DNA of 30,877 nt, from IMG/VR virus record IMGVR_UViG_2778261069_000012, positions 1 to 30,877 of that record. One strand, written 5' to 3'. A model generated the notes under the pieces. It was not told the DNA's origin. It did no database searches and saw only the letters and a program-made list of their open reading frames with translations. The position numbers and the translations under genes were made by a program. Source of the stretch: a virus. Its lineage: Duplodnaviria > Heunggongvirae > Uroviricota > Caudoviricetes. Shown one piece after another: positions 1,989 to 29,601 of this stretch (the first letter of the stretch is position 1; each line of letters opens with the position of its first letter).

Positions 1989-2018
1989 TAAAAAAAGGCC
2001 AACCCCGAAGGATTGGCC
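1989..2018 (-). terminator. rho-independent terminator for the minus-strand cassette
   Basis: GGCCAA / TTGGCC stem with 10-nt loop; the minus-strand transcript follows it with a U-run (A8 on the + strand at 1989-1996). Confidence 0.6.
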
Positions 2019-2025
2019 TAGAGAA

Positions 2026-2256
2026 TCAAATTCCTGTTGCTTCTACCATTTCACCATCAACCTGAACAAAGAATTTCAAATCAACTTTATGGAGTGATTT
2101 GTAGAATTGAGCGATTGAAATACCGTGTTCGCTCAATACTTGTTCTTTTTCGGCTTTACCTTTCGGTGCTTGATAGTACGCTTTTACAATCGCTGCCAGT
2201 TGTTCACGATCAAAACGGCAAGGACGACCGCGAGTAGCTTTAGTAGTCATAGTCAT
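2026..2256 (-). CDS. small basic protein, putative DNA-binding (AT-hook-like RGRP motif)
   Basis: 76-aa ORF; N-terminal TRGRPCRFDREQL and HTH-like EHGISIAQFYKSL; co-oriented with the 200-aa ORF upstream of it. Confidence 0.5.
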   Translation of the reverse strand: MTMTTKATRGRPCRFDREQLAAIVKAYYQAPKGKAEKEQVLSEHGISIAQFYKSLHKVDLKFFVQVDGEMVEATGI

Positions 2257-2284
2257 TTCTCCAAATTAAAGTGAATGTTCACCT

Positions 2285-2887
2285 TTATTTAGAGGACTTA
2301 CATTTTATCGGAAAAAGTTCTCCATCGTCAACCGACATAAAGAACTCTGCCTTAATCCCGTACTTCTTCAACCGTGAATAGTATGTACCCCGACTTATAT
2401 CAACCTTGCGCAGCACTTCGAAGAACTCTTTAGGATCGTTGTAATAATGGCTATATCGCACGTTAGCGAGTTCAACGAACAATTCCCTTGTATCACCATA
2501 CCCTTTCTTGAATGCCTCGTTACGATAGCGTGTAACAGCGTGATTCAATCTCTTCTGTTTCAACACTTCTCGGATCGGCTTCCACTGCAACCTATAGATA
2601 GGACCGTCATCAATGCGATAATAACGCTTGATATCAAAATCAAACCAATCTCGGACTCTCCGAAACTCTGTATGTGATGTTCTATGCTTCTTAAAGAAGT
2701 TGTGAACGTCTGTATAACCATTATCACGGTAAAATTCTATTAAAATCTCTTTCGCTTCCTCACGACTAAAACCGGATGTTGTGTAATCAGTCTTTAAGTG
2801 CTTATGCTTGACTGGCAAACGGTATTCATGATCGGTACAAGACAAGGCTAATTCTAATTCATCTCTTTGTTTCTGATTAATTAGCAT
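2285..2887 (-). CDS. hypothetical basic, aromatic-rich protein with C-terminal HTH-like segment
   Basis: 200-aa ORF; SD AAGGGGG directly upstream on the minus strand; C-terminal [17 protein letters not shown] looks HTH-like; divergent from terL. Confidence 0.55.
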
Positions 2888-2974
2888 ACAACCCCCTTAA
2901 ATCTTAATACCCGTATTTATCAGAAAATCAACAATTTAATAAATACCTTCATATTTCGTAATGAGGGTAATTAC

Positions 2975-4879
2975 ATGAAACTGATTTCTAATAAGGCCAA
3001 ATTAAAAAAGATTCTCAGAAATGCAGCCAAATATATTACGCCACCGCCTAAGCTCCTTCCTTCTGAATGGTGCGAAGCGAATATGGTGCTGGTAGATGGT
3101 CCTCAAGCTGGGGATAAAGTTAAATTGCTGTCATTTCAGAAAGGTATGATTGATGCTCCTTTCCTTGAGAATAAGAAAAAATATGTTCTGATGACCAGTG
3201 CGCAGATCGGAAAGACTACCATCTTGAACGGTATCCTGTTTAACCAGATGGCTAACGATCCATGCAATATGATTATCGGACAATCAACCGCTAAAGAAAT
3301 GTCTCAATATCTCGCTGGTAAGATCCGACCGTCTATCGAAGCATGTGATGCATTAAAAGACGTGGTTACAGACAAGAATGATCGCAATGCTGTTAACAAC
3401 AATAACCAGCTACAGCTAAAAACGAATCACTTCCTATACATGGTATCGCTTACCAGTCCATCAACCCTACGTGGTAAGACCGCAAAGGTTGGATTGCTTG
3501 ACGAAATCGATGCTGCTACAGCCTCAGAAGAAGGTGATCCGGTGGCACTTGCTGCTAACCGTTTAACTACCTTTGGCGATGAAGGTCGATTAGTCGTATC
3601 CAGTACCCCGACCAGTAAGCTCGGAAGCATTAACCAGCAATGGTTATCAAGTGACATGCGTATGTTTTTTGTTCCGTGTCCTCATTGTGGGGAGCATCAA
3701 GTAATCGAGTGGGAAAACGTACAGTTTGAATGGCGTAACATCGATGGCAAGAACTTACCCGATCCTGATACCGCTCGTTATATTTGCCCACACTGTAAGC
3801 AATCATGGACAGAAGGGGAACGAATCAGGGCAGTAGCGCAAGGCGAGTGGAGAGCAACCCGTGAAAGTGAAGTAGCAGGATTCTGGATTAGCCGTCTGTA
3901 TTCACCTTTCAGCACGATCCGCGCTTGTGTGGTTGATTTTAGTCATGCGTGGCAATCCTTTGATTTACAATCATTTTATAACACCGTGTTAGGTAAGGTA
4001 TACGATGATCAGGACACGGCAGTAGAAGCAAATGAACTGGAACAACTCAAAACAGATGTTTCTATCGAGAATATCCCTGATGACGTGATTTTCTTGTGTT
4101 CGGGAATTGACCAGCAATTGGACCGCGCAGAATCTACCATCTTAGGTGTCGCGAAAGATAAGGTTTACATTCTGGATCACCGCAGCTTTTACGATCATAA
4201 CTGTGAACGATATGAATCACCTGTATGGGATAGATTAATCAACTTCCATAAAACCAAATTTACTACTGTATCGGGTGATCGTGTTCCTATGCTCGCCAGC
4301 TTCCTTGATACATCGAACGGTCGATTCACTCAAGCTGGATACCGTATTTGCGGCAAGTGGAAGAACTTACACGCTATCAAAGGTAGTTCTGCTGGTAACG
4401 CTCCGATCATTCCGGTTAAACCTACCCGCACAGGTGGTCATGAATTGCTTATGTTGGGTGTTAACGTGGGTAAAACTGCATTTCGTGAAATGTTGGCTAG
4501 GAACCTGAAAGATAATCCTCATATTGGCTTAGAAATATCAGACACCGTTCCTGATGATTATCTCGATCAGCTTTTAAGTGAATCTGTCAAGCGTACTACT
4601 ACTGGCGTGAGATGGGTAAAGAACCCAGGCGTTAGGAACGAGGCGCTCGACTGCGCCGTGTATGCTACAGCGGCTTCTCGCTACGTCCTTTCAAAAATGT
4701 CATGGGATAAACTCATTGCAATGAAAGACAGCTTAAACCGTGTTGTCGAAGAACCCGTAAAAGCTCCTAAATCGCAATCTAACGAGCAAATCGAAGAAAC
4801 TAAGCCAATCACACGACCGCAACGTCAAAACATCGCCAGACGCCCAAATAGAGGCCGTAGCTGGGTAACATCGTTCTAA
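2975..4879 (+). CDS. terL: terminase large subunit, lambda GpA-like family
   Basis: 634 aa; P-loop-like [10 protein letters not shown] near the N-terminus; CPHCGEHQ ... CPHCKQSW zinc-ribbon pair; position upstream of the portal gene; SD GAGGGTAA. Confidence 0.88.
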
Positions 4880-25671: not shown

Positions 25672-25681
25672 TCCATAAATA

Positions 25682-25703
25682 CCCTCATAGAAACTTATGG
25701 GGG
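25682..25703 (+). promoter_or_regulatory. stem-loop that sequesters the SD of the downstream gene
   Basis: CCCTCATA-GAAACT-TATGGGGG; the GGGGG is the only SD for the ATG at 25710. Confidence 0.4.
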
Positions 25704-25709
25704 TATAAC

Positions 25710-27902: not shown

Positions 27903-29582
27903 TTAAATTCCAAATTCCTGTAATGGACCTGGTATTTCCTCTTCTGGTTTCCAGTTCTTATCTGTCAGCATGTCTAAACATGGATGCAAAACAAGCCCGT
28001 TACTCTCCAGAATCTGCCTATCATTGATAGTTTTCAAATCAATGAATATCCGGCCTTTCCTCGTTCCTCTTGAATTTTCTATTACAACTCTCTGGGTCTT
28101 TCCATCGATGTATTCCAGCACAAACAAGTTTTTATTTCTGTCAATCCTGCTACACCCGATCCGCTTTAGAGCTTGCTTAATCTTAAACCGGACCTTTAGT
28201 CGTTCCTCGTTATAAACATCTTCTAAATCAAATTCTGCGAGCTTCTCCCAGCCTTGAGAGTCCACAGAATACATTTCCTCTTCTGCCATCTTGATCTGAT
28301 TGTAGAGTGTTTCACGCTCGCTATTGAGGGTAGTAATCTGATCGGCTAGCTCCTTCGTTGCTCCTGTCATAGCAGAAAGGGCAATCAGGTTATCAATCTT
28401 GCGTGATATTTCATCAACCTGTACTTTCAACGCCGGAACCGGATTAGCCTTGTCCTCAGCAATCCAGATTTTATCAGCCAGCAATTGCAATACAGCTTTC
28501 TCTAATTGATCACCTCGAAAACTCCAGTTTGGATGCTCGCAATCAAGTCTACGTGAACGGGTCGCATCACATGTATAACGATACTGGTCAGAACGTTTGT
28601 TCGTTCCCTTCACTTTAACCATAGCGCAACCGCAATGATCACATTTCAATAGGCCAATACCACTAAGCAGGGGGATCGGTTTAACTTCTTCCTTGTCTCC
28701 AAAGTTCCATGCTCTAGCACCAATATTTTTCTTAAGGTGATAGAACGTAGCATCATCAATAACACGAGGGTAATAATTCTTTAACTCATAGTTAACACCA
28801 TCTACAGAGACTTCCTTGATACCAATCAAAGCGCGGGTATGGAACAACCTTTCAACCATTGCCCGTGACCATTTTGAATGCTTCTTATTACTAACCGCTG
28901 GTGGCGGTGTATATGTCTCGTTAAGGTGATCCAGTATTTCGGCGGTTGAACGTCCATTCTTCCGTAATTCCACAATCTCCTGAACAACAGGGAAGTACAC
29001 CGGATGAGGCAGCACATAACCGGAAGTGGTATCAGTCCACCACATATTCTTTCCAACTTCCTCGATAGCCACTGCCGGATTTTGTGGATTTTCTTGATGA
29101 GCTTTAATCTTAATCAATGCGCTTGAGTTAGTACGATTGCGCTTAGTCTGACTTTCCTCATTACCACGGATGAATAAAAGGATGGAGAACATCAGGTCCA
29201 TCGGATTAGCGGTAACAGTATCCAGCGAGTAGATCTTGTTATCCATGCCAGTAACAATGGTTATTCCCCTACGGATGATTGAAAGGAATAACTCCTGCGC
29301 ACTGACAATATCGGCACGGGATAAGCGGTCCAAGTTTTCAATGAATAGCCAGCTACCAACAGGAACGGATCTACCAATTGCATCAAGGAAACGAGATAGC
29401 GCCCCTGTTTTAGAGTTAGCACCCTTAAACGCAGATACACCCAGATCCTGATAATCATTTACCAGTTCAAGGTCATACTTTGCCGCAACCTCTCTCGCCA
29501 TCCTGATTTGTCGTTCATAACTCGAACCATCATTCTGACGCATAGACGAGAAGCGAATATACGAATACAGTTTAGTTTTCAT
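27903..29582 (-). CDS. large serine recombinase (integrase-type)
   Basis: 559 aa from ATG 29582 (the ORF track begins at an upstream TTG at 29597); N-terminal resolvase-type catalytic domain (YSYIRFSSMRQ ... ENLDRLSR); Cys-rich zinc-ribbon (CDHCGCAM ... C ... C); C-terminal coiled coil. Confidence 0.85.
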   Translation of the reverse strand: MKTKLYSYIRFSSMRQNDGSSYERQIRMAREVAAKYDLELVNDYQDLGVSAFKGANSKTGALSRFLDAIGRSVPVGSWLFIENLDRLSRADIVSAQELFLSIIRRGITIVTGMDNKIYSLDTVTANPMDLMFSILLFIRGNEESQTKRNRTNSSALIKIKAHQENPQNPAVAIEEVGKNMWWTDTTSGYVLPHPVYFPVVQEIVELRKNGRSTAEILDHLNETYTPPPAVSNKKHSKWSRAMVERLFHTRALIGIKEVSVDGVNYELKNYYPRVIDDATFYHLKKNIGARAWNFGDKEEVKPIPLLSGIGLLKCDHCGCAMVKVKGTNKRSDQYRYTCDATRSRRLDCEHPNWSFRGDQLEKAVLQLLADKIWIAEDKANPVPALKVQVDEISRKIDNLIALSAMTGATKELADQITTLNSERETLYNQIKMAEEEMYSVDSQGWEKLAEFDLEDVYNEERLKVRFKIKQALKRIGCSRIDRNKNLFVLEYIDGKTQRVVIENSRGTRKGRIFIDLKTINDRQILESNGLVLHPCLDMLTDKNWKPEEEIPGPLQEFGI

Positions 29583-29601
29583 ACCATTTCCAAACAAAAA
29601 C

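Follow-up and report, generated by a model that had tools for sequence, protein, structure and literature searches.

The two minus-strand genes lying directly upstream of the large terminase gene (terL) in the 30,877-nucleotide stretch of viral DNA analysed here, referred to below as the window, are best explained as a regulatory module of DNA-binding proteins in an Escherichia coli prophage, a function that we infer and to which we assign a probability of roughly 0.55. We hold with high confidence that this cassette is not the small terminase (TerS) and that the gene for TerS lies outside the window. The cassette proteins constitute a new, narrow family within a familiar class, that of the phage helix-turn-helix (HTH) DNA-binding proteins, the binding of DNA being predicted.

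The window covers about 31 kb of an E. coli prophage of about 35 kb, starting approximately 5 kb in from the left end and reaching almost to the right end. Matches to the first 7 kb of the window, at 90 to 95% identity, occur in 58 of 5,426 complete E. coli genomes. In strain ETEC4090 (NZ_CP122620), the prophage of about 35 kb splits ycdX, a PHP-domain gene, and its recombinase corresponds to the large serine recombinase of the window (Table 1); the Proteus and Salmonella relatives adjoin a truncated PHP-domain gene too, so that the same target gene family is involved. The prophage is integrated in ycdX by this recombinase, and a search of the literature on ycdX prophages returned nothing relevant. 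The host element would be a temperate, siphophage-like prophage. The region downstream of terL encodes a 164-aa protein of the head-tail-joining-like type (phrog_5774, 2.5e-8) and a portal of the lambda family (3e-63), and it contains a 667-aa ORF, whose homologues in the relatives carry a protease-capsid fusion (Peptidase_S78 plus Phage_capsid). A megablast search with 6 kb of this DNA against cultured phages gave no match.

Table 1. Positions of the features discussed in the text (numbering of the window unless a relative's locus is named)
Feature	Position	Strand	Remarks
Rha/Ant-like gene, 291 aa	994-1896	+	phrog_63 anti-repressor Ant, 1.5e-15; terminator at 1878-1896
Cassette intrinsic terminator	1996-2019	-	10-bp stem with 6 GC pairs, 4-nt loop, T7 tail
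Small cassette gene	2026-2256	-	76-aa ORF; RGRP arm, then one HTH plus beta-hairpin module
200-aa cassette gene	2285-2887	-	basic protein; two tandem HTH plus beta-hairpin modules, residues ~40-100 and ~130-195
Divergent control region between cassette and terL	2888-2974	.	87 bp; conserved core motifs
ATAAATAC box of the cassette, candidate -10-like	2913-2920	-	25 nt upstream of the 200-aa start codon
ATAAATAC box, candidate promoter of packaging/head operon	2939-2946	+	28 nt upstream of the terL start codon
Leader hairpin pairing with the terL Shine-Dalgarno (SD)	2944-2969	+	dG -10.4 kcal/mol, z -3.3
terL, lambda gpA type, 634 aa	2975-4879	+	GpA_ATPase 8e-57, GpA_nuclease 7e-45 (Pfam); phrog_15 2.8e-140
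Third ATAAATAC box (25675-25682) with SD-pairing hairpin	25675-25705	+	ahead of 115-aa gene and endolysin
Leader hairpin of the lysis genes, same design	25680-25705	+	dG -13.8 kcal/mol, z -4.2
Large serine recombinase	27903-29597	-	corresponds to ETEC4090 prophage recombinase
Small terminase, Nu1-type, 183 aa	L002:15180-15731		outside the window; first gene at the prophage left end

Location of the small terminase gene

The preliminary description reported that there is no plus-strand gene immediately upstream of terL and that no terS-like ORF is recognisable in the window, and both observations hold. The plus strand between 1989 and 2974 contains only short antisense ORFs within the two genes; Pfam and PHROG scans of the 76-, 200-, 110-, 149-, 164- and 291-aa proteins gave no terminase-small-subunit match, with no hit of the 76-aa and 200-aa proteins to the Pfam or PHROG TerS families at E <= 1, and an HMM built from the lineage's own TerS found no match in the six-frame translation of the window. 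The same description allowed that the gene might lie elsewhere, for instance among the small unknown ORFs. It is not one of those in the window, since the 110-, 149- and 164-aa proteins carry no TerS signal and the last of these matches instead the head-tail joining family named above; the suggestion that terS could lie elsewhere was the right one, because in the relatives a Nu1-type gene is found at the left end of the prophage, outside the window.

This gene was seen in the genomes of the relatives (loci designated L002 and following), at a place that corresponds to DNA upstream of window position 1. The 183-aa TerS of locus L002 matches phrog_57 ("terminase small subunit") at 1.5e-16, and the Proteus and metagenomic orthologues give full-length matches to the same family at 1.3e-22 and 3.2e-19, respectively. 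Furthermore, hhalign pairs the protein over 132 columns with the TerS of Nu1 type found in Jilinvirus and Foxunavirus (probability 95.7%, E 9.8e-9), and sub-threshold Phage_Nu1 matches occur in 9 of 16 members of the TerS family. The gene, located in the relatives about 7.1 kb upstream of terL and 3.3 to 4.8 kb beyond the window, is present in all six relatives that had been retrieved without using terS (L002 to L004 and L006 to L008, by way of the 200-aa protein or DNA similarity), as well as in an Atlantibacter prophage and in the first 30 kb of the Escherichia phage DCP80 record, so that in all relatives the TerS role is filled by a phrog_57/Nu1-like gene. For comparison, the Nu1-type terS is upstream of terL and on the same strand in Jilinvirus, Foxunavirus and CRP-701, being adjacent to it in ECO1230-10 and CRP-701 and one gene away in FoX1.

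Thus, the apparent absence of terS is due to the boundary of the window combined with a group-wide separation of terS from terL, a feature that extends to the Atlantibacter and DCP80 relatives. An anomaly of annotation is thereby removed, as this phage group has a conventional Nu1-type TerS, encoded 7 kb from terL. Since terS is at the left end, at this distance from terL, the early/control region is placed between the two genes, with the cassette at its terL edge. An Rfam scan of the terS-to-terL interval returned nothing. In L002, a conserved, GC-rich segment of about 250 bp that contains a GGTCGCTACGCGAC dyad comes before terS and is a plausible candidate for cos, at the position that cos has in lambda; with terS as the first gene of the left end, attL would therefore be no more than a few hundred base pairs from the putative cos.

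The DCP80 record itself (PQ671644.1) carries the label of a Straboviridae genome of 141 kb. Over the first ~30 kb it encodes a phage of the present type (TerL 45%, TerS 34%, endolysin), and T4-like genes, such as motA, are found past 30.8 kb, which gives it the look of a chimeric assembly.

The cassette genes and the family of their products

As initially described, two minus-strand genes are transcribed away from terL and end at a terminator of their own, which begins 7 nt past the stop codon of the small gene and faces the plus-strand terminator of the upstream Rha/Ant-like gene. The protein features read from the sequence at that stage were likewise recovered: the 200-aa protein is basic and rich in Tyr and Arg (pI 9.4, 20 Arg, 15 Tyr), the RGRP motif is present in the small protein, and the HTH-like character of both is borne out by AlphaFold (AF2) models with three helices and a beta-hairpin. 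Because all homologues of the small protein, 72 to 75 aa in length, begin at the second ATG (2250), the protein probably has 74 aa rather than 76, and it is called the 74-aa protein from here on. Both genes are real and conserved and not chance ORFs, as indicated by 42 and 26 homologous clusters for the two genes and by dN/dS values of 0.16 to 0.23 for the 200-aa gene and 0.05 to 0.37 for the 74-aa gene. A promoter-like match, TTGACG-18-TAAAAT (10/12), was noticed at 2302-2331 on the minus strand, within the 3' end of the 200-aa gene and ahead of the 74-aa gene; it may be due to chance, such sites being rarer in the scan than in shuffled sequence.

The AF2 models are of fair quality (pLDDT 77 and 78.7). 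In the 200-aa protein the unit of three helices and a beta-hairpin is repeated twice, and in the 74-aa protein a single unit follows the RGRP arm. Both models thus contain the three-helix bundle with a helix-turn-helix of the homeodomain-like and transposase-type proteins, and the bipartite HTH proteins of this kind (Hin, Tc3, CENP-B, Myb repeats; HTH_23, HTH_28 and HTH_Tnp_1) are among the closest known to the cassette. In comparisons with the Pfam, PHROG, NCBIfam and PADLOC models, no family was matched, the best curated candidate being HTH_Tnp_1 (E 0.13), whose score of 12.9 bits falls short of the cut-off of 24.1. The two proteins match, weakly and independently (E 0.09 and 0.05), the same region of the NCBIfam model PA0613_fam, an uncharacterised family named after a Pseudomonas aeruginosa gene of the pyocin regulatory region; nothing relevant was found in the literature on PA0613.

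The 74-aa and 200-aa families are homologous (profile comparison 93.9%, E 1.6e-7), and the HMM of the small family matches both modules of the 200-aa protein and, in addition, a 60-aa protein encoded elsewhere in the prophage (L002:18546-18728), which supports the view, drawn from profile similarity, that the three proteins are paralogues. The distant sequence matches of the family profile are only poly-HTH_23/HTH_28 proteins (E 1e-4), and a profile search of 1.84 billion representatives retrieved the family itself together with poly-HTH and choline-binding repeat proteins only. A tblastn search of 50,697 phage records with the 200-aa and 74-aa proteins gave no match, profile searches of PDB sequences with both families gave nothing meaningful, and a Foldseek comparison of the models with BFVD gave nothing at E <= 0.1. 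Judged by these searches, the family is narrow, previously unnamed and confined to this prophage group.

The pair is divergent from terL and 70 to 104 bp away from it in all carriers, be they E. coli, Salmonella, Proteus or metagenomic contigs, and this synteny holds across identities of 41 to 98%. In particular, it was found in 23 of 23 IMG/VR loci anchored on terS, as well as in L002, L004 and L006 to L008. The gene on its far side varies among the relatives (Rha, DUF2158 or others). The distribution among close relatives is not sporadic, the pair being missing only from distant outgroups, namely the Atlantibacter relative (TerL 49%), where an endonuclease-VII-like gene precedes terL in its place, DCP80, Jilinvirus and Foxunavirus. 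The idea, put forward before relatives were consulted, that the cassette is an inserted accessory module is therefore right only in part: it is clade-specific and absent from the next relatives, Atlantibacter and DCP80, but its place and orientation are unchanged in all the relatives examined from E. coli, Salmonella, Proteus and metagenomes. The opposite expectation, a cassette conserved as a core feature of the relatives, found partial support in the synteny comparison, within one clade. As far as the compared sequences allow us to judge, the pair is a fixed feature of that clade and neither a sporadic insertion nor part of the ancestral packaging module; the nearest outgroups lack it, so that the wider group can complete its basic life cycle without it.

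We looked for covariation between the alleles of TerL and those of TerS and of the 74-aa and 200-aa proteins that might point to a physical partnership. Two TerL alleles exist, with only about 54% identity along the full protein (loci L046 to L068); the pair is found with both, and the alleles of the four genes are freely combined, with all combinations occurring, among prophages that are otherwise 90 to 98% similar. A scan of genome contigs with TerL alone found nothing, and one with an alignment as the query found three loci.

The divergent spacer and the candidate promoter boxes

The spacer between the cassette and terL has 76 of 85 aligned bases identical to those of the Salmonella locus L008 (shuffle mean, 58), and its core motifs are conserved where the flanking proteins are 41 to 55% identical and dS is saturated; the region is highly mosaic, and part of this conservation may stem from recent recombination. 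A scan of the spacer for the sigma-70 consensus found no promoter scoring 9/12 or more. The 8-mer ATAAATAC has three exact copies in the window, each 25 to 28 nt upstream of a start codon on the same strand. When one mismatch is admitted, 10 of 37 matches fall no more than 70 nt upstream of a gene start, a location for which only 3.9% of positions qualify. The cassette box is kept in L002, L006, L007 and L008, and the box, often as TATAAATAC, is seen in the relatives L002, L006, L007, L047, L048 and L069. In relatives it is found ahead of early units too; there it precedes the 60-aa-type gene, directly after a LexA-box-like cluster, as well as the 149-aa operon and the gene for the tail fibre. 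The Atlantibacter relative, which has no cassette, carries a related AATAAATA ahead of terL, and the cassette proteins therefore need not recognise the box.

The core motifs of the spacer form an inverted repeat, GTATTTAT...ATAAATAC, which we considered as an operator or a cos element and rejected as such: the spacing of its arms varies from 0 to 38 bp among the relatives, the 8-mer is also found ahead of other genes, equally far from their starts, and the motif is not enriched as a pair elsewhere. For these reasons, the repeat is read, from its sequence pattern, as two back-to-back copies of a phage-wide candidate -10-like promoter box.

The two boxes of the spacer differ in what follows them. 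Downstream of the cassette box there is a dyad, AATAC-GG-GTATT, as at some other sites, without an SD-pairing hairpin. The late units, that is, terL, the lysis genes (the 115-aa gene and the endolysin, phrog_894 1.7e-45) and the Salmonella tail-fibre gene, have a leader hairpin of which the 3' arm is the Shine-Dalgarno sequence itself. Hairpins were located in the relatives at L008:7890-7930(-), L004:2878-2915(-) and near position 195(-) of L007, and that of L004 bears one change on both sides of the stem, from CAT/ATG to CAC/GTG. This design suggests a translational control of the late genes. The box, with or without the SD-pairing hairpin, provides a concrete and testable promoter signature.

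A proposed regulatory role and its alternatives

The regulatory reading of the cassette is based on several observations taken together. The cassette forms a transcription unit by itself, combining the promoter box used throughout the phage with a terminator of its own; its proteins are paralogues of the product of a control-region gene that lies behind LexA-like boxes; the lytic genes are on the other strand, whereas the recombinase shares the strand of the cassette, and the Ant-like gene, whose copies in the relatives are annotated as Rha family regulators, converges on it; and its alleles are shuffled among close relatives. In addition, no CI-like repressor was recognised in the scanned ORFs of the prophage, which were those of the left arm and the cassette, the minus-strand genes of the right end and a number of late ORFs.

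It is possible to hypothesize a self-contained leftward unit running from the promoter box through the 200-aa and 74-aa genes to the terminator, which would encode two paralogous, sequence-specific DNA-binding proteins belonging to the regulatory gene set and not a packaging enzyme. The 200-aa protein, with its two HTH modules, and the 74-aa protein, with one module and an RGRP arm that may contact the minor groove, would control transcription by binding to the DNA of the phage. They would most plausibly serve as maintenance or switch regulators, perhaps as an arm of the lysis-lysogeny circuit, working against the 60-aa paralogue and the neighbouring Rha/Ant-like protein. The DNA targets of the proteins, the direction of regulation and any role in immunity are what we infer from this context.

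Among the known systems, the switch regulators lambda CI/Cro, 186 CI/Apl with the LexA-controlled Tum, and P1 C1 with its small modulators are encoded opposite the lytic genes. The cassette resembles them in its opposite-strand proteins with a predicted HTH fold, in the divergent arrangement of candidate promoters, with conserved boxes in the 87-bp spacer, in the antirepressor-like neighbour, in the LexA-like boxes of the control region and in the shuffled alleles. However, it has no sequence or clear fold relationship to them, and its site beside terL, not beside the integrase or replication genes, is unusual.

Considering the slot that the cassette occupies, a packaging function has to be weighed, in which the tandem-HTH protein would recognise cos or pac and pass the DNA to TerL, as an accessory to the Nu1-type protein or in its stead. 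The pair is locked beside terL in all relatives carrying it, TerS proteins generally use HTH domains, and the canonical terS is unusually far from terL; like the lambda gpNu1-type TerS (PF07471, PHROG 57), moreover, the cassette proteins are small, basic HTH proteins encoded upstream of a gpA-type terL. Nevertheless, they match no TerS profile and lie on the opposite strand with a terminator of their own, not co-directionally with terL, and their tandem three-helix HTH and hairpin architecture lacks the N-terminal winged HTH, the helical, coiled-coil oligomerisation region and the C-terminal TerL-binding tail of the gpNu1 type. As a full and genuine TerS is encoded 7 kb away in the same element of the relatives, TerS features are absent from the cassette and the outgroups manage without it, we regard this function as quite improbable. 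Even more so, a recombination directionality factor (RDF), or a control of excision, for the large serine recombinase appears very improbable indeed: RDFs are diverse and often unannotated, and the size, basic character and HTH fold of the proteins would fit a prophage with a serine recombinase, but on the prophage map the cassette is beside terL and about 25 kb away from the gene for the recombinase, three paralogues with four modules exceed the needs of an RDF, and the RDFs of large serine integrases usually bind the integrase, not DNA.

A moron-type accessory, expressed by the prophage for the benefit of the lysogen, for instance as a DNA-binding silencer of incoming phages or host genes, and with no role in the phage cycle, is on balance unlikely. 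The cassette shares with the lambdoid prophage morons the organisation of an independent promoter-gene-terminator unit that runs against the flow of the late genes, with its candidate box and its terminator; its GC content is slightly low (0.386 at 2001-3000, versus about 0.42 for the window), and it is absent from the Atlantibacter and DCP80 relatives. Different from morons, however, its position is fixed across every E. coli, Salmonella and Proteus member of the clade while the true variable slots alongside it change, its products are DNA-binding paralogues of the core-region 60-aa gene beside the LexA-like boxes, and it uses the phage's own promoter box; a PADLOC search for a defence or conversion function gave nothing below E 0.03.

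A bolder form of the regulatory reading, which we offer tentatively and consider doubtful, is that the 60-aa, 74-aa and 200-aa paralogues make up an undescribed lysis-lysogeny switch replacing CI/Cro, with the cassette as the maintenance arm acting at the ATAAATAC promoters. Such a switch would be built from one HTH and hairpin module and found only in this group of ycdX-integrating serine-recombinase prophages. The unnamed tandem-HTH family and its paralogues are in any case the best regulator candidates for a widespread prophage. If they are ordinary regulators, they lengthen the list of phage HTH proteins in a routine way; the interest of the finding is modest and would rise if the three paralogues truly represented a new kind of switch.

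Directly upstream of the position corresponding to window position 1, L002 has a non-coding stretch of 1.3 kb (L002:18729-20000), found likewise in L007, L048 and L056. It contains about 18 TCCCCG repeats with a spacing of 11 bp, which flank an AT-rich core and resemble the iteron array of an origin. The iteron word varies by lineage, being ATCCCTAG in Proteus and Salmonella and TTCTAGTA in a metagenomic relative, whereas the motif of the terL spacer is constant, and the latter was for this reason rejected as a copy of the iterons. The same stretch holds three LexA-box-like CTG-N10-CAG sequences, clustered beside the gene for the 60-aa paralogue.
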